A DNA stretch of 64,000 nt from an uncultured Pseudomonadota bacterium (GTDB lineage Bacteria > Vulcanimicrobiota > Vulcanimicrobiia > Eremiobacterales > Eremiobacteraceae). The stretch is taken from contig CAVTNB010000003.1 in the NCBI GenBank assembly GCA_963736005.1, positions 416,001 through 480,000 of the forward strand, in the 5' to 3' direction. This document shows positions 41,720-59,979 of this stretch, piece after piece. The translations under genes were made by a program, and so were the position numbers. Under the pieces are notes generated by a model, which saw only the letters and a program-made list of their open reading frames with translations, had not been told where the DNA came from and ran no database searches. Positions within the stretch are counted from its first letter, which is position 1, and each line of letters starts with the position of its first letter.

Positions 41720-44107
41720 TCATTGCCCGAACTTCAAACCGACGTCGAAGAGCCGAGGTGGCGCATAGTGGTTGCCCTGCGCGTTGAGGATCGTCACATA
41801 GTAGCGATCGTTAAAGAGGTTTTGAATCCGAAACGTAAGGGCGGTCCGCGGTCCGACGCTCACGCCCTTCTCAACCGAGAAGATTGTGTGCGGTGTCTTC
41901 TTACAAAAGCCAGGAGTTCCGGCCGGACAAATGGCCGACGAGAGACCGCTGCCATACTCCGCGTCCGCTGAAAACCACCCATTCTGATTGTCGTTCATGA
42001 GCATGCCGGCGGTGACGCTGTAGCTTTGATCGTGATCCGCGGGTGTGAACCCCGTGGGCGATCCGAAGCAGGGTGCAAGCAGCTGCGTTTCGCATCCCGA
42101 GTTCAACGACAGCGTGTGGGCGACGTTGACGTACGCCCGTCCGTTGCGAATGAGCGGCGCTTGGTAGGTTAGTGCTTCCTGCGAAAGCCGGCCAAGCGTG
42201 TAGTTGATGTCCTGATGGAGCAGCGTCACGCCAACTTGCGTGTCATCGATGAGATCGTTGGCATTCTTCTGCCAAACGCGAAAGCCCAGGGTTCCATTAC
42301 CCAACGGGAGATGGCCTCCAAGTTCGAGTTGCGTATCGCGCTCTGGTTTGAGATCGAATTGCGCGAGCGTCGACTGCAGCGGCAAGTTCAACAATTGCGC
42401 GGCTCGCGGATCGACGTTTTCAAGGGAGAATGGTTCGAAGAAGCGCCCTAGATACACATAGACACTCGCCCGAGGTCCGAAATTTCTCGCGAGCTTGATG
42501 CGCGGACTCACCGCGCCGAATCCACGGGCAAAATCTGTCGACTTGATGTTGAACAGATCCCAGCGCATTCCGTAGTCGAGTGTGTAGGCGTTCCCCATGG
42601 TCCAGCTATCCTCAACGTACGTGCTGTAGATGTTGCCCACGTTGGGATTGTTGTCCACCACCGTAAAGGGTGCATGCGGCATTCCTTTCGTAAAAATCGG
42701 CGCCAAGAAGTTGTTCGGTTGCAGCGTCACCTGATAGTCTTTGATGACGCGGGTCCCATCGTAGGAGATGCCAGCGCGCAGTTCGTGCTTCTCGTATTGT
42801 TTTGAGTAATCGCTTTGAAAGATGTAATCCAGCGCCGTCTTGTCGTCGAAGAGCGAGAAGGCGCACGTGGTGGGAGAAAAGACTCCGGTTTGCACAGCCT
42901 TGGCGCAATCGGTGGAGCTTCCACCGTTGCCGAAAGGCGGTGGAGTTTGGTTGATAGCCTCTCCAAAGGCCCAGTCGTTGACCGGATCGCCGTAGTCCAC
43001 AACACGCGAAACCTTAAATGCCGGTCCAAAACTGAGCGCGCCTGCATTGCCCAGAGCCTGGCGGAATTGAACATTGACGAAGGTGTCGAGTTGCTTCTCG
43101 CTGTCATCCGTGTTCCCAGGCTCTCCAAAGCTGGTAGCATTGGGTATTTGGTTTGTTTGGAAACTGTTGATGATCGAGACGTCGGTGAAGTTGTTATTGC
43201 CGCGCGGCAGCGTCAAGCGCACGAACTCATTCGCGTCGCTTGCGTTGTTGTGCGGCGAACCCAGGTCGGGCGGGTCTAAGCCGCGAGTGGACTGGTCGAG
43301 ATGCAGAGCTGCAGCGAGCCCCCCACCACCACTAAGCGGTGAGTGGAACCCCAGCGTCTCGTCGAGGTTCGTGTACGAACCAACGTGCATTTCACCATCA
43401 ACGCCCGCTGGTCCGGATTGGGCGCGGGTTGAGATGTTGAGTACCGACCCGAATTTGAGTCCATACTGCGCCGGGTACGCACCCTCCATGGCATCGACGA
43501 ACGATACATCGTTGGGATCGATCTCACTGCCGATCTCTCGATTGAGCGCCTGAGGCACCGCAACGCCGTCAACGACGTAGTTGATGACTCCGTGGTCGCC
43601 GTTGAGGTGCACAACGCCGTTGGCCCCGCGCACCGCGCCGGGCAGCTGGATGAGTGCTTCGGGGAAGTTGCCGTTGTATGGCAAGCGCGTCAATACCGTC
43701 TTGTTGAGAACCGTATCGGAGCCGCTGCCGCGGCTGACTCCGGAGGTCACAACGCTCACGCGTCCGAGTTCGGATATTTGAGCAAGCACGAGCATGACCG
43801 TTGCGCCGCCGTTGCTCAGATCCACCCGGACCTGAGCTTGCATGCCACTTGCTGTCGCGGTCACGATATACGTGCCAAGACCGAGACCCGGGAATGTAAA
43901 GTGCCCCTGCGGGTCCGTGATGACTTTGGCCGTGAAATTATTGCCAGCCACCGTGACCGCAGCCCCTGGAACGGACTTGCCGTCTGACGTGACCGTACCG
44001 GACAAGAAAGCGCTCCCACCGGCCGCTAGCACCGCGCTTTTTTCCAAATAGGTGCAAGCGCACCACATTATTGTGAGAACGAGAAAAAACCGAGAAAACT
44101 TCTCCAC
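41720..44107 (-). CDS. TonB-dependent outer membrane receptor with N-terminal carboxypeptidase-regulatory-like domain
   Basis: Signal peptide, G.V...G..VPGA.V, plug YVVDGV..GAYPAQYG, LKPERD, NLFN..Y, terminal beta strand. Confidence 0.88.
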   Translation of the reverse strand: MEKFSRFFLVLTIMWCACTYLEKSAVLAAGGSAFLSGTVTSDGKSVPGAAVTVAGNNFTAKVITDPQGHFTFPGLGLGTYIVTATASGMQAQVRVDLSNGGATVMLVLAQISELGRVSVVTSGVSRGSGSDTVLNKTVLTRLPYNGNFPEALIQLPGAVRGANGVVHLNGDHGVINYVVDGVAVPQALNREIGSEIDPNDVSFVDAMEGAYPAQYGLKFGSVLNISTRAQSGPAGVDGEMHVGSYTNLDETLGFHSPLSGGGGLAAALHLDQSTRGLDPPDLGSPHNNASDANEFVRLTLPRGNNNFTDVSIINSFQTNQIPNATSFGEPGNTDDSEKQLDTFVNVQFRQALGNAGALSFGPAFKVSRVVDYGDPVNDWAFGEAINQTPPPFGNGGSSTDCAKAVQTGVFSPTTCAFSLFDDKTALDYIFQSDYSKQYEKHELRAGISYDGTRVIKDYQVTLQPNNFLAPIFTKGMPHAPFTVVDNNPNVGNIYSTYVEDSWTMGNAYTLDYGMRWDLFNIKSTDFARGFGAVSPRIKLARNFGPRASVYVYLGRFFEPFSLENVDPRAAQLLNLPLQSTLAQFDLKPERDTQLELGGHLPLGNGTLGFRVWQKNANDLIDDTQVGVTLLHQDINYTLGRLSQEALTYQAPLIRNGRAYVNVAHTLSLNSGCETQLLAPCFGSPTGFTPADHDQSYSVTAGMLMNDNQNGWFSADAEYGSGLSSAICPAGTPGFCKKTPHTIFSVEKGVSVGPRTALTFRIQNLFNDRYYVTILNAQGNHYAPPRLFDVGLKFGQ

Positions 44108-44201
44108 GATGACTCCAACTCCTCATGAATATCTTCAAACGACGGCTGTCACAGCCGGCGTATGCCGACCGTAAGACGCGCGCTTTTAGGGCGCTAGGGG
44201 A

Positions 44202-44864
44202 TTACGCGAGGAGCGGAGGTGGACGGTTGGCGAGTTGCGGTGACCAAAAGATGCTGCGTGGCGACCACGCGAAGTTCAAGCATGGCCGGAACACATGGGA
44301 CGTCTCGCCAGCAGCTGGAAGCAGCATCGCCGCCAAGCGTGCTGCAACTCTTGGCAGTCGTGCGGCAATGAGCCGTCCAACAATGGCGAGCAACAGTGCC
44401 GTGACAAGGGCACCAACGACGCCTGCGATCACGTCATGACCGCAAAAGAAGCAACCCTCGCCGATCGCGCTGCCGACGCCGGCCGCAAATTGCAGGGTCG
44501 CCGCGAGCAAATAGAATTGCCAGCCGCCGCCCAGAGGCAGCGTGGCCATCTCATTTGAGAGCAGACGTTTAAAATCTCGGATACCACTGGCCCGCTGTGT
44601 CAGTCCGCGAAATTCACAGACGACGACCGTTGCGCTCGCAAGCGCGATCAGGGCAAGATAGGCGTGACGTGGGGAGAGCACAATGTGCGCGTCAGCATCT
44701 GCGCCCATCCCAAAAAACTCGGATGCCAAATGGGTGAGCACGGCACCTACAACGATGCCCGCTGGAACGGTCCAACGCAAGCTCGATGCCTGAGCCCAAT
44801 GTTGAGAGGTCACAGAAAACAATTTCCCCACTGATAAGTATCGGCTTGCCCAAAGCTGCGGCAT
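44202..44864 (-). CDS. Membrane protein ending in LANRPPP; putative arrest-peptide leader (start 44864 or 44813)
   Basis: About 4 hydrophobic segments, His residues, CFFCGH, C-terminal SPQLANRPPPLLA; lies directly upstream of a TBDR gene. Confidence 0.7.
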   Translation of the reverse strand: MPQLWASRYLSVGKLFSVTSQHWAQASSLRWTVPAGIVVGAVLTHLASEFFGMGADADAHIVLSPRHAYLALIALASATVVVCEFRGLTQRASGIRDFKRLLSNEMATLPLGGGWQFYLLAATLQFAAGVGSAIGEGCFFCGHDVIAGVVGALVTALLLAIVGRLIAARLPRVAARLAAMLLPAAGETSHVFRPCLNFAWSPRSIFWSPQLANRPPPLLA

Positions 44865-44883
44865 ATGCTGGTCATCACACTTG

Positions 44884-44906
44884 TTATCGAGAATCATTCT
44901 CGATAA
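44884..44906. promoter_or_regulatory. Fur-family (Zur-like) operator palindrome
   Basis: TTATCGAGAAT-C-ATTCTCGATAA perfect inverted repeat, identical to 55987-56009. Confidence 0.85.
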
Positions 44907-44997
44907 CCACAGCGGCTGACCTTCGCCTAGCATCATGAAAATGCCCTGAATCCCTTGCAATGGATGACTGACGAAATGCCGAACACTCATACAGAAT

Positions 44998-45675
44998 ATG
45001 CCAAACCGAGACCGCTTCGCCTGGCTCCTTATTACCGCGACTGCCCTTGCCGCCATGGTCGTCGGCCATGCACTAGAGCTGTGGCTTGAGAACATACATG
45101 CCTTTGGCGAGCGTCCTGCTCAGTATAACCACGTTGCCCAAAGCTTCGTCGTGGAAATGGCTGCGCTTGCGTTTCTCGTTGCAGGGGTCGCTCTTGTCAG
45201 CCGCCTGGTCGCTTTGGCGGCACGATCAGTTCCGCGCGGCGACTCCTTGTTGCCCGCGTTGCACGCGATTGCCCAAAACGGGGTGGGTCGAGTCATCTTG
45301 CGCCTCGTCACCGTACAGCTACTCGCGCTGCTGCTGACGGAGTTTTGCGAACAGCGGCTCTCTGGATTCCAGGGCAATGCGCTCCTGTCGATCGTCGGAC
45401 CAGGTCACGCGACAGCGCTCGCTGTCCATCTGCTTTTGGGTTCGCTGGCTGCATTTTTGCTCTTTCGTTTTGCGCGCTTCGCGTCTGCGCGGACACGCTC
45501 ACTCGTCCATGCCGTCGTTGCTTTCCTGCGCTGGGTTGCGCTGCAGCCCAACGGCACCGCGCAACTTCCGCATGGTCCCTCGAGCGTTCCCACATTTTTT
45601 GCCCGCAAGCTTTGCCTGATCTCTCTCGGACTTGCTAATAGACCACCTCCGATAACCTCCGCACTTTTCGCCTAG
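44998..45675 (+). CDS. Membrane protein ending in LANRPPP; putative arrest-peptide leader
   Basis: About 4 hydrophobic segments with His residues (GHALE, HAF, NHV, GHA..VH), C-terminal LGLANRPPPITSALFA; lies directly upstream of a TBDR gene. Confidence 0.75.
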   Translation: MPNRDRFAWLLITATALAAMVVGHALELWLENIHAFGERPAQYNHVAQSFVVEMAALAFLVAGVALVSRLVALAARSVPRGDSLLPALHAIAQNGVGRVILRLVTVQLLALLLTEFCEQRLSGFQGNALLSIVGPGHATALAVHLLLGSLAAFLLFRFARFASARTRSLVHAVVAFLRWVALQPNGTAQLPHGPSSVPTFFARKLCLISLGLANRPPPITSALFA

Positions 45676-45740
45676 GCACAAAGCCGTCGTGGCTTTGGCA
45701 TAGCCTAGGCTCCTTGCTATGCTTTTTGCGGAGGTCTTCC

Positions 45741-48026
45741 ATGCGATTTGTACTCGCAACCATTGTCTTGGCAATTCTTGTCACTATGTGCTCCTTGAAC
45801 CCAGCATCCGCCGATGTCTACGGATCTGTGCGCGGCGTTGTTTTCGATCCTGGCAATCACCCCATCGACGGTGCGAAGGTCTCGCTCGCGGCGCCTGACG
45901 AAGCCACGCAAACAACGCCGACCGACTCCACTGGGCATTTCCGTTTTGCCCAGGTACCCTTCGACACATACGCACTGAGCGTTGATGCCCAAGGCTTCGC
46001 CCCAGCCTCGAGCGTGGTGACAGTTTTGTCGGGTAACGCGGTGGACGTGACATTCCATCTTTCACTCAAGACGATCGGGCGGGTCGTCGCGGTGGGCACG
46101 TCGACGGGTGCATCAGGGCAACCCGTGAGCGTCAACGTTATTTCGCAACAAACCATAGCAGCGCTGCCCAACGGAAACTCGCTGCAGCGAATAGTACAGA
46201 CCGTTCCCGGCGTCGTTCCGTTTTCATATAACGAACCGGTTGCGCGCGGCTTTCATGGCGTGACCTACGAGATCGACGGGGTCCCGTTACCGCAAACCGC
46301 GGGGCAGTACTTCTCCGAGATTATCGACCCGCGTGACGTCGATCGCCTCGAAGTGTTCACGGGCGCAATGCCCGCCGAGTTCGGCGGTCAGCGTCAGGGC
46401 GCCGTGGTTGACGTGCTCACGAAGTCCGCGAACCAGTTCATCGGCCCAGATGGGGGTACCGTGTCTCTGTTCGGCGGATCGTATAATACCGCTGGTGTGT
46501 CGCTCGATCAGGTGGCTGGAAGCGGAAATTTCCGCGCATTCTTCAACGCCAATCTGTTTCGGAACGCACGTGGTTTGGATTCTCCAACGAGCTCCCCCGA
46601 GCACGACAACTCCAATCAGAGCGACGGCTTCTTGCGACTTCTGTTCTCGCCGAGCTCGCGCGATACGCTGGCGTTTGACTATTCCGAGCAGTATGCAGCG
46701 TTCCAAATTCCAATCGACACGAACCAACACGACCCTAACAACCCAAATTGGTCAGTGCCCGGCACCGACGACAACCAACACGAGTATACCCGCTTTGCGA
46801 ATCTCACGTACAATCACACAAGCGCCGATGGCAATGGCTTTTTCGAGTTGACGCCCTGGTGGAGTTCGGACCGGCTCACCTATCTGCCGGATCCGCAGAA
46901 CGACCTCGCCGGCGCCTCGCAATCCTCGACCTTCCAGGACCGTTACTCCAACTTTGTCGGTCTCGCAGCCGCTCTGTTTCGTGGTGGTGAAAGGAACAGC
47001 GTCAAAGTTGGAGTCAACACCGACGTTCAAAACATGATGAGCGCGTTCAACATCTTGTTCATCGACCCAAACACCGGGAAGCTTGCGCCTCCTTTTGAGG
47101 ACAACGTTGCTCAACGCGGAACGAACACGGGAGTCTATGCCGAAGACAAGTTCTATGCCTCGCCTTACGTGACCCTAGACGGCGGCCTTCGCTGGGATCA
47201 CTCGACTGGCTTCACGTCTGGCAATCAGATTAGCCCGCGCATTGAAGCCAATTTTCAGGCAGACCCAAAGAACGTTGTCCATTTTTACTACGGCCGCTTG
47301 TATGCCGCACCAGCCCTCGAAGACGTGCGGCGAGATGCAGTCGTTATTGGCGGCGGTTCGTCTAACGCAGTGCCGGTGTACGACCTCAAACCTGAGCGAG
47401 ACTCTATTTATGAGGCCGGCGTTGCGCACGAGTTCAGTCCGCTCGTGCACGGCTTCCTTACCTTGTGGGGTCGGTCAGTCAACAACGTCCTCGATACGAC
47501 GCAGATCGGCAGTACGCCGTTGTTTACGGTCTTCAACTCTGCGGGAGGTCAGGCAAGCGGCGTGGAGTTTCGCATCAACGGCCGCGTCCTCAATGGCAAC
47601 TCCTATTACTTCTCGTATGGCACAAGCTACAGCATCGCGTCAGGCATCTCCGGCGGAACGTTCAACTTCCCAGTCAGCGCGCTGCAGGGTGCCAACGGGT
47701 GGGCGCTCGAGGACCACGATCAAACGAACACGATCAACACGGCGTACACGTTCACTGCTCCCGGTGGCCGGTTCGCGACGCTGCAAGCCCTCTTTGGCAG
47801 CGGCTTCCCAGTGCAGTTCGAAAATGGCCCGGGGCGGCTGCCGGCGCACTGGGAACTTGGCGCCTCGTACGGACAGCCGGCGTCGCGCACGGGCGTGGGC
47901 TGGGAAGTGAGCGGCACGAACCTGCTCAATCACTTCTATCTAATCAAAGTCGCGAACGGGTTCAACTCCACGCAGTACTCGGCCGGAAGGCAGGTTACTG
48001 TGAAGTTGACGGCGCCTGTCTACTAA
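45741..48026 (+). CDS. TonB-dependent outer membrane receptor (paralogue of 41720..44107)
   Basis: GGAGG RBS, signal peptide, YEIDGV..GAMPAEFG plug, SPR, LKPERD, DHDQ, NLLN..Y. Confidence 0.88.
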   Translation: MRFVLATIVLAILVTMCSLNPASADVYGSVRGVVFDPGNHPIDGAKVSLAAPDEATQTTPTDSTGHFRFAQVPFDTYALSVDAQGFAPASSVVTVLSGNAVDVTFHLSLKTIGRVVAVGTSTGASGQPVSVNVISQQTIAALPNGNSLQRIVQTVPGVVPFSYNEPVARGFHGVTYEIDGVPLPQTAGQYFSEIIDPRDVDRLEVFTGAMPAEFGGQRQGAVVDVLTKSANQFIGPDGGTVSLFGGSYNTAGVSLDQVAGSGNFRAFFNANLFRNARGLDSPTSSPEHDNSNQSDGFLRLLFSPSSRDTLAFDYSEQYAAFQIPIDTNQHDPNNPNWSVPGTDDNQHEYTRFANLTYNHTSADGNGFFELTPWWSSDRLTYLPDPQNDLAGASQSSTFQDRYSNFVGLAAALFRGGERNSVKVGVNTDVQNMMSAFNILFIDPNTGKLAPPFEDNVAQRGTNTGVYAEDKFYASPYVTLDGGLRWDHSTGFTSGNQISPRIEANFQADPKNVVHFYYGRLYAAPALEDVRRDAVVIGGGSSNAVPVYDLKPERDSIYEAGVAHEFSPLVHGFLTLWGRSVNNVLDTTQIGSTPLFTVFNSAGGQASGVEFRINGRVLNGNSYYFSYGTSYSIASGISGGTFNFPVSALQGANGWALEDHDQTNTINTAYTFTAPGGRFATLQALFGSGFPVQFENGPGRLPAHWELGASYGQPASRTGVGWEVSGTNLLNHFYLIKVANGFNSTQYSAGRQVTVKLTAPVY

Positions 48027-48471
48027 GCCGGGACTGTGCACGCGACCACCACGCAAGGTAGATCGCCGCAGCAAAGAGACTCACGTCGCGTAGCACCGTC
48101 ATCCACGTCGCGGGTTGATTGTCGCCTGGACCAAAGCAACCGCAAGGCGCACTCAACCCGCGGATGACGGCCGAAGCAACGATAACCGAGAAGAGCGCGA
48201 GCACAGCAGCCGCGACCGCTGAAGACACCGGAAGCAGGAGCCCCGCTACGAGATAAATCCCAAGCAGTATCTCAAGTGGCGGGAGCGCGAGCGCCAAGCC
48301 TGCAACAAACGGGGGAGGCGCGCCAAGCTTGTAGGCGGTTATCGCCGCGGCGAGATCGGCGGGATGGCCAATTTTCAAGATGCCTGCAGCGAGGAAAATG
48401 CCGCCGACGATAAGGCGTACGAGGAAGGGAACAATATGAGCGCGAGGCCCAAAGAGACGAGCCAGGGTCAA
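47995..48471 (-). CDS. MauE/DoxX family membrane protein (start uncertain)
   Basis: RL..GG.FL.AG..K, LP.LE..LG, CGCFG, RD. Confidence 0.8.
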   Translation of the reverse strand: MTLARLFGPRAHIVPFLVRLIVGGIFLAAGILKIGHPADLAAAITAYKLGAPPPFVAGLALALPPLEILLGIYLVAGLLLPVSSAVAAAVLALFSVIVASAVIRGLSAPCGCFGPGDNQPATWMTVLRDVSLFAAAIYLAWWSRAQSRLSRQAPSTSQ

Positions 48472-49089
48472 AAGGCCGCCACCTCGCCGCCACGCCGACC
48501 CACAAGCGTGCTCTTGCCAGCCATCGTCGCGTTGGTTGCGATTGCTGCTATCATTGTCTACGCGGTTCTGCACGCCAACCGAGCCGTTCCTGGGTCTGCT
48601 GTCGCAACCGACTCGCCTGCGCTCCCACCGCCAATCAAAGCCGGCGCGCAAGCGCCCGGGTTTGCGTTGCCCAGCAAGATTGGCACGTTTTCCTCAAGCG
48701 AACTTGACGGCACGCCCTATCTCTTGGAGATTTTTGCGACGTGGTGCCCGCACTGCCAGCGCATGACGAAGGTTCTGCGCGCGATTCGCGCGAGCGTACC
48801 GCAAGCGCGTCTCGGCATGGTTTCGGTGACCGGCTCGCCGTACGCGGCTAATTCGACGCCGGACAATCTCGTTCCCGAAAATCAAGGTGACGTTGATGCA
48901 TTTGAGTCAACGTTCGGCGTCACGTGGCCGAGCTTTTACGATCCCGACCTTACGGTGGCAAAGAAGTGGGGCTTGGATGGCTTCCCGACGATCTTCATCG
49001 TCAATGCAAAAGGAACGATCGTCTACGCAACGAGCGGGGAAGTATCAAAAACCGAATTGATGAACGCCATAAAGAAGGCCGGCGCTTAG
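48436..49089 (+). CDS. TlpA/ResA-like membrane-anchored thioredoxin
   Basis: TM anchor, APGF.L, FATWCPHC, G.PT.FIV...G; GGAAGGG RBS. Confidence 0.88.
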   Translation: MSARPKETSQGQKAATSPPRRPTSVLLPAIVALVAIAAIIVYAVLHANRAVPGSAVATDSPALPPPIKAGAQAPGFALPSKIGTFSSSELDGTPYLLEIFATWCPHCQRMTKVLRAIRASVPQARLGMVSVTGSPYAANSTPDNLVPENQGDVDAFESTFGVTWPSFYDPDLTVAKKWGLDGFPTIFIVNAKGTIVYATSGEVSKTELMNAIKKAGA

Positions 49090-50280: not shown

Positions 50281-50715
50281 ATGAAGAAACTACAACAAGG
50301 GTTCACGCTCATCGAACTGATGATCGTGATCGCCATTATCGCGATTCTCGCAGCCATTCTTATTCCGAACTTCCTCCACGCGCGTTCTGAGGCCGTCACC
50401 GCGGCCTGCGAAGGCAACGAGAAGCAGCTTGCCACAGCTGAAGAGGAATACTCGGTTGACAATGGCGGCGCGTATGCTTCGCTTGCCGTCCTCACGACAC
50501 CATACTTGAGCGTCGTTGTGACGGATCCGGTGAAGAAGGGCAACGCTTACACCGTGACGATCCCGGGTTCGGGCTCCAATGGCTCGTATCAGATCTCGGA
50601 CGCGGGCGGACATGACACGACCACCACGACCAGCCTCACGCAAACGGGCGGTGCTGCATGCACGGCGTGCGCATCCATCGTTTACGCACAGGCCTCTGGC
50701 ATCCACGGTAACTAA
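50281..50715 (+). CDS. Type IV pilin / prepilin
   Basis: KKLQQG|FTLIELMIVIAIIAILAAI N-methylation motif. Confidence 0.9.
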   Translation: MKKLQQGFTLIELMIVIAIIAILAAILIPNFLHARSEAVTAACEGNEKQLATAEEEYSVDNGGAYASLAVLTTPYLSVVVTDPVKKGNAYTVTIPGSGSNGSYQISDAGGHDTTTTTSLTQTGGAACTACASIVYAQASGIHGN

Positions 50716-50782: not shown

Positions 50783-51427
50783 CTATTGACTTGCGTTAGC
50801 CGCGTTATGCAAATACGAATCGATGAACGAGACGATCTTGTGCTTGTCGATCGCCGGCAACGTCCCCAATCGTGTCCAGGCGGTGAGCGCAATCCGTGAC
50901 TTCATCGCGGGATAGGGCGCCACGATAACCGCCAGCCCCTGATCTTCGCCGTTTTGCACGTCCGCCGCGCTTGGCTGCAACTCATTTGTGGGAATGAGGT
51001 GCATGTCGTACACCATCGCAATGCTACCGAGCGCGGCCGCCAGACCAGGACAATTGCAATTGTACTGCAGCAACACATTGCCGTGTTCGAGCAAGTGAAC
51101 TTGGACGTACTTGGGAATCGGCACCGGGCTGATAAACGTGTCGGTAAAGAGTTCGCGATGGGGACCAGAGCTCGGCGGGTTGGAATTGTACACGAAATCA
51201 TCCGGTTCGCCCGGTTGTAAGTGCGTGTGGCCTTGCGAGGGATAATACGTACCCAAAAACGGAGCTGGAGAGTTTACCGGCGTGGCGGAAGTGGTACTGC
51301 TCGCAGGAGCAGCGTTGGCGGGGGAGGCAGAAGCCGCCCCGCCACTCCGCGAACCCGAGCACCCAGCGAGCGCGAGGACGCACACGGCAACAGTGAGGCT
51401 TGATCGAACGGCGCACGCAAAGTTCAT
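50783..51427 (-). CDS. DUF3105-like lipoprotein
   Basis: LAGC lipobox; YNSNPPSSGPH, VHLLEHG, YNC, IALTAW. Confidence 0.8.
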   Translation of the reverse strand: MNFACAVRSSLTVAVCVLALAGCSGSRSGGAASASPANAAPASSTTSATPVNSPAPFLGTYYPSQGHTHLQPGEPDDFVYNSNPPSSGPHRELFTDTFISPVPIPKYVQVHLLEHGNVLLQYNCNCPGLAAALGSIAMVYDMHLIPTNELQPSAADVQNGEDQGLAVIVAPYPAMKSRIALTAWTRLGTLPAIDKHKIVSFIDSYLHNAANASQ

Positions 51428-51467
51428 ATCTGAGCTTTCGTCCTGGACGCGCGCCGGGCCTCGCATC

Positions 51468-52103
51468 TCACTGATTGAGGTTGTCTTCGTTGCGCAGCCA
51501 TTGGTTGATGAATGACATGATTTTTGTTCGGTCCACGGCATCGAGCGTTGCCAAGCGCGTCCAGGCGGTGAGCGCTATTTTGTGAGGCATCCCTGGATAA
51601 GGCGCGACAATCACCGCGAGCCCGCTTTCCTCCGCCGAGTGAACTTGATCCGGTGTGGGTTGTACCGTCCCTGGCGGCAAGACTCTGGCATCGAACTCAT
51701 TAGCAATTTCAGCAAGCTGTTGCGCGACGTCCGGGCACAGCAAGCAATTGTATTGCAACAAAATATTGCCGTGCTCGAGCAAGTGCACTTGGACGTACTT
51801 AGGAAGCGGTGTCGCGTTGATCAATACCCCTGTTGTGACTTCCCGATGATATCCAGAAGTTGGTGGATCGCTGTTGTATCGAAAATGCGCAAAGCGACGG
51901 TCGTCACCAGGCATGTGCCCTTGATGGCCCTGCGAAGGATAGTGGGAGCCCGTAAAGGCGCTCGGTGCGGGCTGCGGCGGAGCGTTTGCGCTACGCAAGT
52001 GCATGATGAGCGCCACCACGACGCCGGCGACCACGATGAGGGCGAGCACCGGGGGCAGCAGCGACATCGCCGAAGATTGCTGTTTTTTGATTCTTTTTGC
52101 CAT
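51468..52103 (-). CDS. DUF3105-like membrane-anchored protein (paralogue)
   Basis: TM anchor; YNSDPPTSGYH, VHLLEHG, YNC, IALTAW. Confidence 0.8.
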   Translation of the reverse strand: MAKRIKKQQSSAMSLLPPVLALIVVAGVVVALIMHLRSANAPPQPAPSAFTGSHYPSQGHQGHMPGDDRRFAHFRYNSDPPTSGYHREVTTGVLINATPLPKYVQVHLLEHGNILLQYNCLLCPDVAQQLAEIANEFDARVLPPGTVQPTPDQVHSAEESGLAVIVAPYPGMPHKIALTAWTRLATLDAVDRTKIMSFINQWLRNEDNLNQ

Positions 52104-52915
52104 TAGCTTCCCGGAAAATAAGGCACGGCGTCGATGTCCTGGGTAATGATTCCATGGTACGTGCCGTGTCCAAAGGCAGTCAGATCGACGGAGAACAAGC
52201 CGCCGTTGGTTGTGACGCGCACCGTCACAAGGCCCAGCGGCACGTCGGTCGTCTGCCACGTTTCGACGCGCGATTCGGGCAGTCCGGTCGAACCTCCGAT
52301 ATCTCGTGGGGGAAAGTCGACACTGGTATGCACCGTGTTGAGCGTGGCGCCGCGGATCGAAACGTTCTCCGGCCGAGATGAAACGACGATCCCGGCGCGA
52401 GTGTCGGGCATCGGCAACAAGCCGAACAGCAAGAGCGATTGGAGCGTTTGGTGGTATGTGGCAGGCACTGGCTTCGATGGGTCGCCACCCAAACGAAAGA
52501 GCGCGTCGCCGATCTTGATGATGCCGCCGGCGAATGAATAGAGCCGCAGGCTGTCGTTGAAATCCGGTGCGTCGACGAACATCTTCCAGGTAATGGTTCC
52601 CCCCGCGACCGACTGGCTCGCCACGGGTGAAGAGACCAGTCCAGACGTCTGTGTTTGAATTTCAAAGAACGCCGCCTGCGTGGCTCCAAGTGTGCCAGTT
52701 CCAAAGCCGATCGTCTTCGTCGCAACCGGATTGCCATTCACCGAGACTCGATAGCGTACCCAATCACCCGCCTGTGGGGCGACAAAGAGATAACCAAAGA
52801 GATCGGTCTGCGTGATGGTCTGGCCAACCTGCGGAGCGACGATTGCCGCACGCGCGGGCGCGAGCAAGCCCAGCATCACCCCCACCAGCTCGGCGGTTAC
52901 GAGCAGCGCGCGCAC
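52103..52915 (-). CDS. Secreted hypothetical protein
   Basis: Signal peptide (ARA), overlaps both neighbours. Confidence 0.7.
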   Translation of the reverse strand: MRALLVTAELVGVMLGLLAPARAAIVAPQVGQTITQTDLFGYLFVAPQAGDWVRYRVSVNGNPVATKTIGFGTGTLGATQAAFFEIQTQTSGLVSSPVASQSVAGGTITWKMFVDAPDFNDSLRLYSFAGGIIKIGDALFRLGGDPSKPVPATYHQTLQSLLLFGLLPMPDTRAGIVVSSRPENVSIRGATLNTVHTSVDFPPRDIGGSTGLPESRVETWQTTDVPLGLVTVRVTTNGGLFSVDLTAFGHGTYHGIITQDIDAVPYFPGS

Positions 52916-53328
52916 ACGCCGAAAAATTCCAGTTGATGCTCCGTGAGCGAAAATCCGAGTCCGCGCGATAGGATCCTCTCGTAGTTGGGCAGCGCTTTGC
53001 AGGGAACGTCATCGACGCGGCCGCAGCGCTTGCACACGGCGTGATGGTGATGCTCGCTCGCGCACCAGAGGTAGGCTGCTTCGCCATGCTGTTGGGTTGC
53101 GGTCGACACCCAACCCATCTCACGCAGCGCCTCGAGCGTTCGGTAAATGGTCGCGAGTCCGACGGGCGGGCGTCGGCCACGCATCCGCTCGTGCAGCTCT
53201 TTGGCGGTGAGGTAGCGGCGCGCCGATCGCAGCGCGCCAATCACGTGCTGGCGCTGTTTGGTCATGCGACGCGATGTGCCTGCGAAAAGTTCGCGAGAGC
53301 CTATCGGCGGCTTTGCGGGGGTTTTCAT
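52897..53328 (-). CDS. zur: Fur-family regulator, probably Zur
   Basis: MTKQR, ATIYRTL, HHHHAVCKRCG, FGVCARC; within the znu operon. Confidence 0.85.
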   Translation of the reverse strand: MKTPAKPPIGSRELFAGTSRRMTKQRQHVIGALRSARRYLTAKELHERMRGRRPPVGLATIYRTLEALREMGWVSTATQQHGEAAYLWCASEHHHHAVCKRCGRVDDVPCKALPNYERILSRGLGFSLTEHQLEFFGVCARCS

Positions 53329-54188
53329 TTGACGCGTGCAGCCGTTCGGCGCGCATCGAGCAGCGCGGTCAGCAACGAGCGGCGCTTGGGTGAGAAGATC
53401 ATGGCGCCGAAGAAGCACGCGGTTGCGACGAGGACGATGCTTGCGCCCGAAGCGACGTTGAGATAGAAGGAGAGATACAGACCGACGATGGCCGATCCCA
53501 TCCCGACGATGGCAGAAATGAACATCATTGGGCCGAATCGGTTGGTGAGTTGGTACGCGGTGGCCGCAGGCGTCACAAGCAACGCGGCAACTAAGACGAT
53601 ACCGGCCGCCTGGAGTGAAACGATGATCGTGACCGCCAAAATCCCAAGCAAGAGATAGGAGAGGCCGTCCACCGGCAGCCCGCTGGCGCCGGCCGAGACG
53701 GGGTCAAACGAGGCAAAGAGCAGCTCTTTGTAGAGCAACGCGATGACAGCGAGAATGACCGTCGTCAGCAAAGCAATGATGACGATATCCTTGCGATCGA
53801 TCGCTAAGATGTTGCCGAAGAGAAAATCTTGAAGATCGATGACGTAATTCTTGACGTGTGACATGAGCGCAATGCCCAGAGCAAACGCAGCGGTAAAAAA
53901 CACGCCGATCGTCGTATCGAGCGAGACTTCCGATTTCTTGCTCACAGCGCCGATCCCAAGCGCCGTGAGAATGGTAAAAATGAGTCCGCCAATGTACAGA
54001 TCGAACTTCAGGAGATACGCGATGACGATGCCAGCGAACGATGCGTGCGCCAGACCGTCGCCGATAAACGACATATTGCGGAGCACGACGTAGACCCCGA
54101 CAATCGAGCAGACGAGTCCAATGAGCAGCGCGGTTATGAGTGCGCGCACCATAAAATCGTTCTGCAGGGGCGAAATGAGAAGATCCAC
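53325..54188 (-). CDS. znuB: Zn/Mn ABC transporter permease
   Basis: GDGLAHAS, LFGNIL, SFDP, G..LV.ALL.TPA.TA. Confidence 0.88.
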   Translation of the reverse strand: MDLLISPLQNDFMVRALITALLIGLVCSIVGVYVVLRNMSFIGDGLAHASFAGIVIAYLLKFDLYIGGLIFTILTALGIGAVSKKSEVSLDTTIGVFFTAAFALGIALMSHVKNYVIDLQDFLFGNILAIDRKDIVIIALLTTVILAVIALLYKELLFASFDPVSAGASGLPVDGLSYLLLGILAVTIIVSLQAAGIVLVAALLVTPAATAYQLTNRFGPMMFISAIVGMGSAIVGLYLSFYLNVASGASIVLVATACFFGAMIFSPKRRSLLTALLDARRTAARVK

Positions 54189-54192
54189 GTCG

Positions 54193-55089
54193 TTACGCCG
54201 GCGTTGGGGCGCCGAAGAGCACGTGGCTGCCATAGGTGGCCGAGAGCGTTTCCCGAGTGAGGACTTCGGAGGGCGAACCGAAGGCAACGACGCGATGGTT
54301 GAGGGCCAAGACCCGATCGAACCACTCCGCCACGCACGAAAGATCGTGGGTCGTGGCGATGATCGTAGTGCCCTTCTGCTTCAGCCCTTCGAGCAAGGTA
54401 AAGATGGCGTGCTGCGTGGTTGCGTCGACCCCAGCGATCGGCTCGTCGAGCAGCATGAGCTGCGGGCGTTGCACGAGCGCGCGGGCGACGAAAACGCGCT
54501 GTTGCTGACCGCCTGACAGCTGGCCGATTTGCGCGCCAGCGTAGGCTGACATGCCCAACTGTTCTATGGCTTCTGCCGCTGCCTGACGGTCCGCTGCGCT
54601 CGGCCTTCGGAAGAGTCCCACGCGACCGTAGGTGCCCATGAGGACGACGTCGGTGACGGTGACCGGGAACGACCAATTGACCGACTCGCTTTGCGGCACG
54701 TAGCCGATGAGATGGCGCACTTCGGGGCTGGGCGGTTGCCCAAAAACGAGCACTGAGCCGCATTGCACGGGCAAGAGGCCGGCAATGACTTTCAACAGCG
54801 TTGACTTACCGGATCCGTTTGGGCCGATGATGCCGACGAACTCGCCCCGCTTGACGCCAAACGTTACCTCGTCGAGCACGTCCCTGCCGAAATAGCCGGC
54901 GCACACCCCCTCCACCCACAACGCCTGCTCGGCGATTTTGTCGAGGCTCGGTGCGACCTTGGCATGGCCTTCGTGAGGATGGGTGTGAAAAGTTGCTGGC
55001 GCCACGGCATGGCTGTGGTCCAACGCGGGCGGAACTTCATGTGGCGCAACGTGCGTATGATCGTGTCGCACGGCCGGATCGCTTTTCAT
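54193..55089 (-). CDS. znuC: Zn/Mn ABC transporter ATPase with His-rich N-terminal extension
   Basis: GPNGSGKST, GYVPQ, LSGGQQQR, LLDEP, THD. Confidence 0.9.
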   Translation of the reverse strand: MKSDPAVRHDHTHVAPHEVPPALDHSHAVAPATFHTHPHEGHAKVAPSLDKIAEQALWVEGVCAGYFGRDVLDEVTFGVKRGEFVGIIGPNGSGKSTLLKVIAGLLPVQCGSVLVFGQPPSPEVRHLIGYVPQSESVNWSFPVTVTDVVLMGTYGRVGLFRRPSAADRQAAAEAIEQLGMSAYAGAQIGQLSGGQQQRVFVARALVQRPQLMLLDEPIAGVDATTQHAIFTLLEGLKQKGTTIIATTHDLSCVAEWFDRVLALNHRVVAFGSPSEVLTRETLSATYGSHVLFGAPTPA

Positions 55090-56000
55090 TTGAGCGCCTG
55101 CACGATCGTCTTGACGTCGTGATGCATCATGCCCTCGTAGGAGCTGAGATCGGGAGTGGTGCCCAAGGAGTCATCGTACAAATTGGTGACCGTCTTGATG
55201 CCTGCCGAATCCGCAAGTTGCTTGGCGAGCTTCGGGGAGAATTCCGGCTCGGCGAAGATTGCTCGCACATTGTGCGCTTTTGCTCTTGCAATGAGCGACA
55301 CGAGGTCGGCCGCTGAGGGTTCTTTGCCAGGCGACTGCTCGATCGCGCCGACGTCATCGATGCCATAACGCCGATCGAAGTAAAACCAAGCGTCGTGGTC
55401 GGCGATCATGGCACGCTGACTCGGCGGAATGGTTGAAATTTGCTGACGGGTCCACGCATCAAGCGCGGCAAGGTCTTTGACTTCTGCCGCGGCGTTCTTT
55501 CGGTATAAGGCAGCGTGAGCAGGGTCCGTTGCCACGAGCGCATCGGCAATCGCGCGCACGTACGAAGCGGCGTACTGCGGATCGAGCCAAAAGTGGGGGT
55601 TGGCAAATTCGCTGCCGTTTGGATGGCTCACTTGTCTGGGGAGCGAGTCGCTCAGCACCTCAATGCGCGCCTGCGGCGAGGCGTCTGCCAGCAGTTTTGT
55701 CAGCCACGCTTCCAATCCCGAACCATTTTCCACGATCACCGCGGCATGGCTGAGCTCGATGAGATCCCGCGGCGCCGGTTCGTACGTTTCAGGAGATGCG
55801 CCGATGGGCACGAGCCAATGAACCTCGAGTGCGTCCCCCGCGACCGTTTTGACAAGGGAGGCGAGGGTGGAGGTGGTCGCGACGACGATTGGTTTCCCGG
55901 AAGCGGTCGCAGCGGGAGCGGTACCCGTGCTGTGCCCGCACGCCAGCAGTGCAGCTATGGCCACGCATACCGAACCAGCTCGGATTTTATCGAGAATCAT
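55086..56000 (-). CDS. znuA: Zn/Mn ABC transporter substrate-binding lipoprotein
   Basis: LLAC lipobox, ENG.GLE, NPHFWLDP, HDAW.YF, IF.E, DSLG. Confidence 0.88.
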   Translation of the reverse strand: MILDKIRAGSVCVAIAALLACGHSTGTAPAATASGKPIVVATTSTLASLVKTVAGDALEVHWLVPIGASPETYEPAPRDLIELSHAAVIVENGSGLEAWLTKLLADASPQARIEVLSDSLPRQVSHPNGSEFANPHFWLDPQYAASYVRAIADALVATDPAHAALYRKNAAAEVKDLAALDAWTRQQISTIPPSQRAMIADHDAWFYFDRRYGIDDVGAIEQSPGKEPSAADLVSLIARAKAHNVRAIFAEPEFSPKLAKQLADSAGIKTVTNLYDDSLGTTPDLSSYEGMMHHDVKTIVQALK

Positions 56001-56009
56001 TCTCGATAA
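55987..56009. promoter_or_regulatory. Fur-family (Zur-like) operator palindrome overlapping the znuA start codon
   Basis: TTATCGAGAATCATTCTCGATAA, identical to 44884-44906. Confidence 0.85.
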
Positions 56010-56020
56010 TTATCTAGGCT

Positions 56021-56078
56021 GTAGCAGCGGACCTTTAGGTCCGCTAAGCCAAAGCGCAGCTAAAGGTGCGCTGCTACA
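56021..56078. repeat. Inverted REP family B doublet
   Basis: GTAGCAGCGGACCTTTAGGTCCGCT facing agcgcagctaaaggtgcgctgctac. Confidence 0.75.
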
Positions 56079-56084
56079 ATGACG

Positions 56085-56235
56085 CTAGGAGAGAACGGAT
56101 TCGCGATAGCTCTCCATGATGTTGCGCACGTACGCCTGGGTCTCTGGGAAAGGCGGGACGCCACCGTATTTGTCGACGGCCGCGGGGCCCGCGTTGTACG
56201 CGGCGAGGGCGAGGTCGACCTGACCATGATAATGG
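56085..56235 (-). pseudogene. 3' fragment of a lytic transglycosylase (SLT) gene
   Basis: [35 protein letters not shown]; homology and host-like composition stop at about 56235; the catalytic ES/GLMQ half is absent. Confidence 0.85.
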
Positions 56236-56286
56236 CAGGGACTAAGTGCGAACATACCTAAAGGACCGCCAACTGAGGTTTCTCCT

Positions 56287-58049
56287 ATGGTAAGTCCGTT
56301 CAAAGGTGGGGGATGTATGCGAGGGTTTCAACTAAAACCCAGGCAGACAAGAAGCTGTCGATCCCCGTTCAATTGGGCCTAATGAGGGCACATGTCAAGT
56401 CAAGTGGGTGGCAGGAGGTTGCAGCTTTCGAGGAGCCGGGGAAGTCCGGCACATTGGTCAAGCGTCTGCCTGTCTTGAATGGCCCTGATCGAGGAAGCCA
56501 CTGGCCCAGCGCCCCGCTTCGACACGGTGCTAGTTTACGACATTTCCCGCTGGGGGGCCGCAACACGGATGCAGTCTTGGCAAAGGAAGTCATACGCCAG
56601 CGGGGGATTCGAGTAATTTATCTCGCCGAGCAAACGGGCGAGACTGAGGAATCGGAGGACATTGAGGGTGCTGTTCGAATGGCTTGCCAAGATGCACAGC
56701 CGGTGTTCTGGCGCGCAAGGTTCCCAAAAGTCAACGTGAAGCAGTCAAGGAGGGCCGCTGGGGCAGCGGAGTGCCGCAAGTGTTCGGGTACTTCACACAA
56801 AAAGGAAAAGGTCTGGTCCCCAATCCACAGACGGCACCCATAGTTCTACAATGTTTCAAGAAGTACGCTGCTGGTGATCAATCCGCTCGATTGCAAAATG
56901 GCTAAACACAAATGTTTCAGCCCAGCGAGGCGGATCGTGGCGTAGTGGAACGGTCCACAACCTTCTTACTAGACGCGCGTACCTCGGGCACATAACCTAC
57001 GGCGCTGCACCGAGTGAACGGTAAGCGTGTTCGACTTTCGACTCGAAGAGAGAACGGAAAATCCTAACCAGTACAAACGACTTGTGCTGCAGAGACTTTT
57101 CGATCAGGTTCAAGAACGTCTCAGCCGTAACGATCAGAGCCGCGCAGAAGGTTGTCTCAACGGAATGTGCTCGCGGTTGTCGGACGGTGCAAGTGCGGTT
57201 CAACTCTAACCTTTCAAAAAGGTGGTGGCCCTCGCAAGGACCGCAAAAAATATCGCTCGCTGGTTCTGGCACTGCAGCCGCTGTCGCCTGAATGTTGATC
57301 CGAGGCGCAATTTCGAGGGGTGCTACGGCTACTTTCCGCAGGACGTAGTCGAGACGATGATTCGGGATAGGATGCATTTTCTTCTTGCTGCTGGTGGAAT
57401 AAAGCAAGCCGTTCAAGCATACAATGCCGCTGCTGCTCAGGCCTCGGAGCCACCGGAACTTGCTACTCTCAAAACGATGGTCGATGGTCTCAGGAAGCGT
57501 GAGCGCAGCCTCGTTGAATTCATCGGTGACGGTTCTCGAAGTTTCGATGCCGTTGCCGAGGACCTGGAGAAAGCAAACGGACTGCCAGGATGCAGAAGAA
57601 AAACCTAGCACAAGTGCTGGCTCGGGTCTGCCAGATTCAATCACCGATTGACGAAGCAGAGATTGAAGGCGCTTCTGATAAAATCCGCAAGGCCCTCAAA
57701 GCCGGAGACATTGCCAAACTAGCAGTTGTCTTACCTCACCTTGTGTCGAAGATTGAAATAGACTTCACGTTGCGACACGATACCGCAAAATACTGGCGCA
57801 GACGGGCACAAGATTTTCTTGAAACTCTTGCAAGAGAAACTCGCAAGAAGTGTGACGAGAAAAACATTTCTAGATTGGAAGTCCGCGTATGATGAAAACG
57901 ACAAATTGCAGGCCGCTGCTCATCGTGGTCTCGTCATGCATCTGAAGTACGACATAGCTAACCTGGCTTCAGCCGGTCAAGAGGCTCTCGAAGCAGTTGG
58001 CGAGTATGCCCACGGGCACACTTCGGAAGCGTTACTCTCCAAAGCCTAA
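56287..58049 (+). pseudogene. Large serine recombinase (integrase), multiply frameshifted
   Basis: YARVST..Q, SG, FDTVLVYDISR, G.W.....FGY, L.PNP..A.IV..CF..Y and Y.G motifs spread over several frames; coiled-coil C-terminal part. Confidence 0.8.
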
Positions 58050-58104
58050 ATTCAACCGCATAACCCAAGAGGGCGACGGCCCTCTTCTTTTCAAGGAAAT
58101 TTCA

Positions 58105-58455
58105 ATGTCCGCCACAACCGTAATCAATTCATCCATAAGCCCAGGCCAATCCGTCTCGGGGACTTTCATGACGTCCGCTCCCTTCAGAGGGGTAGAGATT
58201 GTTCAAGAGCAGACAATGGCCCAACCAACCTTTCCCGGCGTGTTGGTCTCCTACCAAATCAGCCTAGACAATGGCACCACATGGTCAGATGCCCAGCCGG
58301 TTCAGCACGAAGCGAATGCCAGTATAAGTGGATCGGGAAACTCAAGCTCAATCTTGCTAAATGAATTCGCCACAACTGTAAAATTCAATGCGACCAACAC
58401 CAACCGAGCCGTAGCATGCGCCTCCTTTGTGTTGGAGGCGGAATGCTTCACCTAG
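58105..58455 (+). CDS. Hypothetical beta-rich protein
   Basis: AAGGAA RBS then ATG; YQISLDNGTTW motif. Confidence 0.6.
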   Translation: MSATTVINSSISPGQSVSGTFMTSAPFRGVEIVQEQTMAQPTFPGVLVSYQISLDNGTTWSDAQPVQHEANASISGSGNSSSILLNEFATTVKFNATNTNRAVACASFVLEAECFT

Positions 58456-58837
58456 GATGAGATACTTAGAAGCCTCATCCCGAAGCAGTTGCGAAGCACC
58501 CGGAGATTCAAAACAGCTATTGTTGGATCGTTGAAAATAAATGCGGCAACCCCCAATGTCTGAACCCACTTCACCAGCTTGACAAACCGAAGGCTAAGAA
58601 ATGAGACAGAATGATTTTAATTAAGGCAGTTTGCGTTGTACTTGTGCGCCTGGTTCTTAGCTTCTTTCGGGGCAAGAACTAATGACGAGGATCGACCGGC
58701 AGATTGACCTCGTCTTAAATTCCAAGAACCCGAGGCTCGCCAAGTTTCTTTTTGGAGAACGTGGGCTTCCGTTGTTGGAAGTTATCAAGCAACTAAGGGA
58801 ACAAAAACCAACGGTAAAATCAGATAAGGATTAAACA

Positions 58838-59682: not shown

Positions 59683-59754
59683 AAAGAAAAGGAGCCCCAC
59701 TTTGCGTGAAGCTCCCTTAGTGAACCAGATTTCTATTCGATACGCTTGTCCTTT

Positions 59755-59934
59755 CTAGACCTTAGTGCTATGGGTTGCGGTCACGGCTTCTTCTAGAGCT
59801 TCCGTGAACTGTTCAATCCCGACCTTTGTCGAGAGGTTGAACACACCGGGAGTGCCGGTGTCAGTGTAGGCAATTTTCCAACTGCTCCGCTTCACGCCCG
59901 CTGGATCAGTCAGCGTGATTGTGTAGTGCTCCAT
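59755..59934 (-). CDS. Small hypothetical protein (59 aa), absent from the ORF track
   Basis: AAAGGAG RBS; MEHYTITLTDPAGVKRSSWKIAY...HSTKV*. Confidence 0.55.
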   Translation of the reverse strand: MEHYTITLTDPAGVKRSSWKIAYTDTGTPGVFNLSTKVGIEQFTEALEEAVTATHSTKV

Positions 59935-59979
59935 TTTGATTTCTCCTTTGGTTTCTAGTGATTAAATGGGGCGATAAAT

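Follow-up and report, generated by a model that had tools for sequence, protein, structure and literature searches.

The window analyzed in this study is a stretch of 64,000 nucleotides (nt) from an uncultured bacterium of the Eremiobacteraceae (Vulcanimicrobiota; assembly GCA_963736005.1, contig CAVTNB010000003.1, positions 416,001 to 480,000). Two divergent genes at this locus encode predicted four-helix membrane proteins, here called leader L and leader R, and each is followed on its own strand by the gene of a TonB-dependent receptor (TBDR-L and TBDR-R, respectively; Table 1). An earlier note on this DNA had described the arrangement as a mirror image, with two divergent open reading frames (ORFs) that have about four hydrophobic segments and His residues (one of them also a CxxC-G-H motif), that both end in LANRPPP with the three Pro codons written CCA-CCT-CCG, and that each precede a receptor gene by 65–94 nt under a single Zur-like box. 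We found all of these elements in the sequence, with spacers of 94 nt on the L side and 65 nt on the R side, and a palindrome between the leaders whose core is common to an operon encoding a ZnuA-like protein and a Fur-family regulator. We propose, with a probability of roughly 60%, that the leaders are RAPP-like nascent-chain arrest leaders that expose the receptor genes' ribosome-binding site, a control layered on Zur-type repression.

Leader R ends in GLANRPPPITSALFA and leader L in PQLANRPPPLLA. The codons for Leu, Ala, Asn and Arg of the common LANRPPP differ between the two leaders, and the Pro codons are identical. The longest form of the leader L ORF begins at 45095 (297 amino acids) and would overlap leader R. 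Since homologues start near the first transmembrane segment (TM1), we place the start of leader L at the TTG 44822 (206 amino acids), which is more likely, or at most at the ATG 44864 (220 amino acids); the near-identical 206-amino-acid homologue P0030 begins at the residue corresponding to TTG 44822, and GGGGA precedes this codon. AlphaFold2 models leader L (predicted local distance difference test, pLDDT, 74.7) with helices at residues 32–56, 65–91, 115–135 and 145–181 and a disordered tail, and leader R (pLDDT 79.1) with four long helices and a disordered C-terminal tail. A simple hydropathy count gave exactly four TM segments in 72 of 141 homologues, three in 44 and five in 15. Both leaders have His residues and leader L carries GEGCFFCGHD; by the positive-inside rule, read from the sequences, the N-terminus, loop 2 and the tail would be cytoplasmic and the conserved His/Glu/Cys cluster periplasmic.

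Leader L matched no family in Pfam or NCBIfam, and its model had no PDB match at E ≤ 1e-3 with Foldseek (best E 0.4); as its fold is a generic helical bundle, we draw no function from it. By feature search in the ESM Atlas, the nearest clusters were hypothetical proteins of Vulcanimicrobiota and Actinomycetota at 0.95, which we take as a lead only. The earlier note had suggested a profile search against DUF2946, and the leaders proved not to belong to this family: neither had any Pfam hit at E ≤ 1 or any hit in NCBIfam, and none of the 32 members of the leader L family matched DUF2946 at E ≤ 10. A small exported protein with an N-terminal Sec signal peptide was also considered and rejected, the leaders being instead 206–225 amino acids long with four predicted helices.

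By comparing the two leaders in a single pairwise BLAST, we found that LANRPPP is their sole match (E 0.013). LANRPPP is invariant in all 29 homologues of leader R, which span 42–98% identity, and NRPPP is present in all 31 homologues of leader L with an intact C-terminus. By contrast with this invariance, the codons vary synonymously: in 24 leader ends (those of the window and of 13 genome loci), the first Pro is written CCA in 10, CCT in 7 and CCG in 7, and the Arg of the motif is written by both CGN and AGR codons. Since the motif is invariant while its codons vary, selection acts on the peptide and not on the DNA. An RNA-level cause for the identical CCA-CCT-CCG codons of the window was accordingly rejected as the main one, since these codons vary freely in homologues; the CCUCC that they create does act as a predicted anti-Shine-Dalgarno (anti-SD) sequence in the window.

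We then looked beyond the close homologues with a profile search of 1.84e9 representative proteins, which returned 124 hits at E ≤ 1e-3. RPPP lies within the last 30 residues of 98 of these 124 representatives, 56 of which have NRPPP (56/124), and most of those without RPPP are fragments or belong to the weakest hits. The expectation that the C-terminal RPPP and the His/Cys residues would be conserved is thus borne out, His, Cys and Glu being kept in homologues. CxxC is present in 29 of the 124 representatives only; the features found superfamily-wide are a His...Glu in TM1, an Arg-His before TM2, a Glu-Gly after TM3 and the C-terminal motif, which is separated from the stop codon by 0–13 residues.

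The motif also stands at a fixed distance from the conserved residues of the membrane domain. CxxCGHD and RPPP are 76 residues apart in 26 of 31 members of the L family (range 75–78), GPGH and RPPP 79–81 residues apart in 29/29 members of the R family, and, in a branch with RAPP described below, an ExxEQ motif precedes RAPP by 93–95 residues in 25/25. The linker is thus fixed in length and poorly conserved in sequence: the mean majority fraction in the two families is 0.31/0.40 for the linker, 0.59/0.85 for the 8–9 residues before the motif, 0.97/1.00 for NRPPP and 0.44/0.55 for the residues after it, compared with 0.63–0.64 for the four-helix domain. This profile is what would be expected if the last dozen residues contacted the ribosomal exit tunnel while the folded domain sat just outside. 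The fixed spacing is analogous, and not homologous, to that of DUF2946 proteins.

Comparison of the two families with hhalign (94.5%, E 7.7e-8) identifies leaders L and R as remote paralogues. By scanning the genome of the window for C-terminal R[PAG]PP, we found a third paralogue outside the window (G000:C3, about 301879–302538; L002:1207–1866, plus strand), a protein of 219 amino acids with four hydrophobic segments that ends in GERAPPLLAS and is followed 51 nt later by the start of a LytR_cpsA_psr gene. RAPP ends 119 of 120 of its homologues among the matches listed, and one member of this branch, in another genome, ends in RGPP. With hhalign, this family matched the leader R family over 209 columns (93.9%, E 1.6e-7), GERAPP falling on ANRPPP, and the leader L family weakly (39%). 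In addition, two of the 124 representatives (P0174 and P0158) carry NRAPP aligned on the NRPPP of their closest relatives; scans of metagenome contigs found no relative of these two variants. One distant member of the family belongs to Candidatus Velthaea, according to a cluster look-up. RAPP and RGPP are the sole alternatives to RPPP at this place of the alignments. In published work, RAPP and RGPP are the most robust arrest motifs shown and are refractory to EF-P, and CruR as well as four-TM RAPP/RGPP proteins of Streptomyces lividans stall in vitro (PMC12992588), RPPP is the strongest XPPP stalling context in Escherichia coli lacking EF-P (PMC4176338), and RPPP is counted among the "RAPP-like" sequences in PMC10987492.

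Next, we examined the RNA at the leader-receptor junctions in silico. On the plus side, the SD of TBDR-R, GCGGAGGU, pairs with ACCUCCGCA (45655–45663), just 3' of the Pro codons of leader R, and this outer stem encloses a hairpin that begins at the leader stop codon (-52.8 kcal/mol, z -3.1). The probability that the SD is paired is 1.00, and the duplex of spacer R reaches -19.6 kcal/mol against -12.2±2.7 for shuffled sequences. On the minus side, the SD and the start codon of TBDR-L pair with the RPPP-Leu-Leu codons of leader L (z -2.0), with a duplex of -23.9 kcal/mol against -17.3±3.3. In 22 of 24 junctions, the SD has a pairing probability of at least 0.8, its main partner being the stretch between the Arg codon and 15 nt after PPP. 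In the L family, the anti-SD consists of Leu-Gln codons (CUCCAG) located two codons after PPP, and one L-family locus has CUCCGU:ACGGAG where CUCCAG:CUGGAG is usual, that is a double compensatory change. RNAalifold recovered the outer stem in both families, with compensatory changes. We also tested 65 distinct junctions by pairing the 39 nt from the Asn codon with positions -20 to +6 of the receptor gene and comparing each with 200 composition-preserving shuffles: in 44 of them the duplex beats the shuffles at p ≤ 0.05 (over all junctions, median z -2.1 and median free energy -18.2 kcal/mol). The spacers measure 31–115 nt and are rich in structure, including a hairpin that begins at the leader stop codon or extends across it. 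A search for intrinsic-terminator-like sites gave none in the two spacers of the window, and some homologous R-type spacers show, by eye, a U-rich run after the hairpin. As a separate observation, the leader stop lies in a hairpin loop or 5' arm of the type GCAUCAGCC-UAA-GGCUGAUGC in many junctions, examples being the plus-strand junctions of L008, L014 and L016 and the window (45670–45712).

The linkage to receptor genes that the earlier note had asked about turned out to be near-universal. In 13 loci from one-genome-per-species contigs, all from metagenome-assembled genomes of Eremiobacterota/Vulcanimicrobiota, an L-type receptor follows the L-type leader in 13/13, and in 8/13 the mirror image is complete, an R-type leader and receptor being present too, two others being cut off on the R side. 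The family occurs in 63 of 401 sampled genomes of the phylum, five of the matching genomes being unpublished, and it is concentrated in the taxonomic family of the window (26/29), with 36/297 in a second family and 0/73 elsewhere. Across 29 loci, 39 of 41 RPPP ORFs are followed by a receptor gene (35/37 when the unpublished genomes G344 and G233 are left aside); one of the two misses is an artefact of frame choice and the other ORF precedes the gene of a lipoprotein-like protein. An RPPP ORF is present in 19 of 20 further loci from the second family, and a receptor follows in 19/19. These loci are kin and partly come from the same genomes fetched twice, so that none of these counts are independent. 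The scaffold is not bound to receptors, however. The RAPP/RGPP branch precedes LytR_cpsA_psr genes in four of the loci examined, and, in other genomes of the taxonomic family of the window, further members of the leader superfamily ending in ...IANRPPP precede genes of secreted proteins that are not TonB-dependent receptors, either with a C-terminal cytochrome-c domain (L076 and L079) or unassigned (L077, L078 and L082). Since one scaffold with one motif stands before unrelated envelope genes, a regulatory module fits better than a dedicated transport subunit.

The two leader-receptor pairs share one predicted operator with a putative metal uptake operon. In the 2.84-Mb assembly, there are exactly two copies of the 23-nt core of the palindrome between the leaders (44884–44906). 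The other one overlaps the start of the gene of a ZnuA-like substrate-binding protein (SBP), which heads an operon that also encodes an ABC ATPase, an ABC-3 permease and a Fur-family regulator. Since the SBP gene has its ATG in the center of this second box, the mRNA may be leaderless. The regulator of the operon is the only member of the Fur family that we found encoded in the assembly, whose completeness is 84%. Of 42 related loci, 26 have a similar box (consensus TTATTGAGAATNATTCTCAATAA) a short way upstream of the leaders. Zinc is the likeliest candidate for the metal concerned, because the best NCBIfam matches in the operon are AztC and AztB, though these fall below cut-off and are tied with MntC. 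The SBP has a His (ADHDAW) where, as we assume, Mn-type proteins have a Glu.

Table 1. Predicted features of the two leader-receptor pairs and of the znuA-like operon in the window. Rows without a strand value of + or - refer to palindromes.
Feature	Position	Strand	Basis or details
TBDR-L, TonB-dependent receptor, 795 aa (amino acids), GTG start	41720..44107	-	Pfam PF13620, PF07715, PF00593
Spacer L, 94 nt, inner hairpins and TBDR-L ribosome-binding site	44108..44201	-	GAGGAG 44119-44124, GGAG 44113-44116
Leader L, 4-TM membrane protein	44202..44864	-	ORF; homologues; AlphaFold2
Leader L NRPPP codons	44214-44228	-	followed by 3 codons and stop
Predicted Fur-family (Zur-type) operator, perfect 12-1-12 palindrome, divergent intergenic region	44883..44907	.	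GTTATCGAGAATCATTCTCGATAAC
Leader R, 225 aa, 4-TM membrane protein, many conserved His/Glu	44998..45675	+	ORF; homologues; AlphaFold2
Leader R NRPPP codons	45637-45651	+	followed by 7 codons and stop
Anti-SD ACCUCCGCA inside leader R	45655-45663	+	RNA fold
Spacer R, 65 nt, hairpin from leader stop codon, then SD GGAGG 45730-45734	45676..45740	+	
TBDR-R, TonB-dependent receptor, 761 aa from ATG 45741	45741..48026	+	Pfam PF13620, PF07715, PF00593
Fur-family regulator, presumed repressor at both boxes	52897-53418	-	Pfam FUR
ABC-3 permease	53325-54287	-	Pfam ABC-3
ABC ATPase	54193-55089	-	Pfam ABC_tran
znuA-like SBP	55086-56000	-	Pfam ZnuA
znuA-like operon: SBP, ABC ATPase, ABC-3 permease and Fur-family regulator	52897..56000	-	Pfam ZnuA, ABC_tran, ABC-3, FUR
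Second identical 23-nt palindrome core, start of znuA-like operon	55987..56009	.	

Both receptors combine an N-terminal CarboxypepD_reg domain with plug and barrel domains in Pfam, the Plug match of TBDR-L being weak (E 0.0069, below cut-off), and they share 26% identity over 747 columns. The longest ORF of TBDR-R begins at TTG 45714, and the likelier start is ATG 45741, with GGAGG 6 nt upstream. TBDR-L had no PDB relative at E ≤ 1e-3 and TBDR-R matched enterobactin receptors weakly (E about 1e-5); regarding their substrate, the PDB and NCBIfam comparisons gave no informative relative. Directly after TBDR-R stands a divergent gene pair (47995–49089), with a MauE/DoxX-type membrane protein encoded on the minus strand and a redoxin/thioredoxin-like protein on the plus strand. 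Of the 13 genome loci, five have this pair after the R-type receptor and two more have it on the opposite side, downstream of the L-type receptor; it may be a periplasmic thiol-disulfide system linked to the module. Downstream of the znuA-like operon, on the same strand, are an unassigned ORF of 270 amino acids (52103–52915) and two DUF3105 paralogues (51468–52259 and 50783–51541). Further on, the ORF 50281–50715 starts with MKKLQQGFTLIELMIVIAIIAILAAILIP, which we take to resemble the N-terminal methylation motif of type IV pilins or pseudopilins. On the other side of the operon, the G+C content falls from about 0.60 to 0.50–0.54 right after it (56000–64000) and an N-terminal resolvase fragment is found at 56313–56843; this segment may be mobile or foreign.

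What the sequences show is the anatomy of the locus, its conservation, the exchange of RAPP, RGPP and RPPP, the linkage to receptor genes, the complementary RNA segments and the common operator; from these we infer the arrest, its link to the exposure of the SD, the metal concerned and the direction of the response. Each leader would be an N-in, C-in, four-helix inner-membrane protein whose C-terminal (N)RPPP serves as a RAPP-like arrest motif. The Fur-family (Zur-type) regulator of the znuA-like operon would repress both leader-receptor pairs through the shared palindrome. Once transcribed, the receptor SD would be sequestered by long-range pairing with codons that overlap RPPP or immediately follow it, and a ribosome stalled at RPPP would hold the anti-SD in its mRNA channel, leaving the SD free and the receptor translated. 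When the second Pro codon occupies the P site, the anti-SD would lie about +7 to +18 nt downstream, which, judging from known ribosome footprints, suggests a position inside or at the entrance of the mRNA channel. If the arrest were quickly released, termination a few codons later would allow the stem to re-form and turn the receptor off. Release would be governed by the way in which the four-helix domain inserts or folds during translation. Because this domain holds a periplasm-facing His/Glu (Cys) cluster at a fixed distance from RPPP, periplasmic metal, probably zinc, would cut the arrest short and stop the synthesis of the receptor, as is the case for CruR with copper. This last step, in which the stall ends upon metal binding in the periplasm or upon insertion of the nascent domain into the membrane, so that receptor synthesis ceases when metal suffices, is possible rather than probable.

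Several observations weigh against the arrest leaders proposed here. EF-P normally relieves polyproline stalls, the genome encodes EF-P, and the strong-staller score of RPPP was obtained in the absence of EF-P (PMC4176338). As large, well-conserved proteins with conserved polar residues, the leaders may have a function of their own. At the RNA level, the duplex is no better than shuffles at p ≤ 0.05 in 21 of the 65 junctions, part of the complementarity comes free since C-rich PPP codons pair with any GGAGG, and a crude "stalled ribosome" constraint fold leaves the SD paired (P 0.21–0.94). Spacer R also contains a promoter-like site (TTGGCA-17-TATGCT, 45695–45723; 0.6±0.9 expected by chance), which, if real, would give a leader-independent receptor transcript. 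As for the metalloregulation, the box was not found in 16 of the 42 related loci, including all six of the second taxonomic family, the SBP scores, below cut-off in either case, are almost equal for AztC (Zn, 206 bits) and MntC (Mn, 205 bits), and the best scores of the regulator are those for Fur or PerR, with 44 bits for Zur (NCBIfam). The kinship of the loci counted, mentioned above, is to be added to these points.

The presence of EF-P also speaks for another scheme, in which the leaders would be stable inner-membrane proteins, such as metal-handling partners of the receptors, and RPPP would merely slow the ribosome, opening the stem and setting a fixed leader-to-receptor ratio by constitutive translational coupling, without any sensing. 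Such coupling agrees with a four-helix domain that is conserved as in an ordinary protein (0.63–0.64) with invariant His/Glu/Cys, and an SD-sequestering stem would work for any ribosome reaching the end of the ORF. We nevertheless consider it unlikely, given that the same scaffold and motif also stand before LytR_cpsA_psr and cytochrome-c proteins, that the linker is fixed in length and not in sequence, and that the RAPP and RGPP replacing RPPP in homologues give an arrest that EF-P does not relieve, that is more than a pause (PMC12992588). A different output can be imagined from CruR, which acts upstream of a TonB-dependent receptor (PMC9426467): the stalled ribosome would block Rho-dependent, or hairpin-dependent, termination in the spacer and so control transcription elongation. 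The structured spacers of 31–115 nt, with their hairpin at or across the leader stop, would suit this mechanism, but it needs no complementarity between the RPPP codons and the SD, and neither spacer of the window contains an intrinsic-terminator-like site, which makes it quite improbable in our opinion.

C-terminal proline-rich tails often act as binding motifs. RPPP could therefore be a motif of the mature protein, for instance a cytoplasmic docking or sorting signal, and the RNA pairing a by-product of C-rich Pro codons, since CCN codons pair with GGAGG by composition. However, composition does not explain why 44 of 65 junctions beat shuffles that preserve it, nor why the anti-SD of the L family is made of the post-motif Leu-Gln codons, which covary with the SD flank. 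A docking signal would also hardly be expected to alternate only with RAPP and RGPP, and to be always 0–13 residues from the stop with the downstream gene 31–115 nt away, so that we hold this explanation to be very improbable. Taking these observations together, we retain nascent-chain arrest coupled to SD exposure as the preferred reading.

To our knowledge, the characterized metal-responsive arrest peptides (CruR and CutF) became known only in the last few years, and each of them is a small secreted DUF2946 protein responding to copper. The leaders would bring the same logic onto an unrelated four-helix membrane scaffold in an uncultured phylum and couple it to a Zur-type operator, and thus probably to zinc. 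As judged from sequences, the scaffold, the motif variant with its natural RAPP/RGPP/RPPP interchange and the mirror duplication under one operator appear to be new, and the metal probably is as well. RPPP as a family signature was left unsearched by the published RAPP/RGPP surveys, and its exchange with RAPP and RGPP in homologues amounts to a natural experiment linking polyproline stalling with RAPP-type arrest. A bolder and doubtful extension is that the leaders belong to a superfamily of polytopic nascent-chain sensors specific to Eremiobacterota/Vulcanimicrobiota, with a periplasmic metal site and an interchangeable RAPP/RGPP/RPPP at ruler distance, the pair of the window being the first zinc-responsive arrest peptides, acting atop cytoplasmic Zur sensing. 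If this were true, the two diverged leaders would respond to zinc in the periplasm, each controlling the translation of a different outer-membrane receptor, and the swap of the EF-P-refractory RAPP/RGPP with the EF-P-sensitive RPPP would tune the hardness of the switch. The C-terminus of a leader, the 65-nt spacer and the receptor start form a compact and testable system, in which one could address how a stalled ribosome is freed when a membrane domain folds or when metal is bound across the membrane.

The earlier note had presented the architecture as not known as described. It has more precedent than that, since upstream ORFs with RAPP/RGPP before TonB-dependent receptors and four-TM arrest peptides are both in print (PMC12992588). 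In the literature searched, which did not extend to the supplements of the survey papers, we found no mention of the NRPPP family, and none of the papers listed as containing "NRPPP" concerns bacteria; among the papers listed, "RPPP" appears together with arrest peptides only in PMC10987492 and PMC4176338.

Several described systems resemble the leaders. The four-TM peptides SLIV_18480, SLIV_27375, SLIV_33595 as well as SLIV_33605 of S. lividans (PMC12992588) share with them the four TM segments, predicted metal-binding His/Cys, a C-terminal RAPP-like motif and a metal- or envelope-related gene downstream, and their arrest was demonstrated in vitro. Compared by description only, they differ in having RAPP/RGPP, in not standing upstream of TonB-dependent receptors and in coming from another phylum. 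SecM-SecA and ApdA/ApdP (PMC10987492; PMC10951233) also have a C-terminal arrest of the R-A-(G/P)-P type, close to where the ORF ends, and a localization signal or TM segment upstream, and their stalled ribosome opens a stem hiding an SD, as we propose here. These peptides, however, monitor Sec/YidC activity and precede secA, secDF or yidC, whereas the targets here are outer-membrane receptors under a metalloregulator.

Further parallels come from copper homeostasis. In CruR-BfrG of Bordetella pertussis (PMC9426467), the leader ORF carries a metal-binding motif at constant spacing from a C-terminal R-x-P-P, which itself lies a few codons short of the stop, the gene immediately downstream, beyond a structured spacer, encodes a TonB-dependent receptor, and metal controls this receptor post-transcriptionally, as proposed for the leaders. 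CruR is an exported DUF2946 protein of about 145 amino acids with a signal peptide, RAPP and a CXXC-RAPP spacing of 45 residues, its metal is copper and its output is Rho-dependent termination; the leaders, in contrast, are four-TM proteins of 206–225 amino acids with RPPP, a spacing of 76–80 residues, a conserved SD-sequestering stem and a Zur-type operator. In CutF-CutO of Rhodobacter capsulatus (DUF2946; bioRxiv 10.1101/2025.02.05.636593), the stall site is a C-terminal PPP repeat, a stem-loop over the downstream ribosome-binding site is melted by the stalled ribosome, and periplasmic metal is sensed across the membrane with the involvement of EF-P; the melting and the sensing are what we propose here. 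CutF differs by being a small secreted protein with a multicopper oxidase downstream and by a stall that copper induces, whereas the leaders are polytopic, have a receptor as target and would respond with the opposite polarity. By analogy with these two systems, the leaders probably work like CruR-BfrG and CutF-CutO, on a different scaffold.

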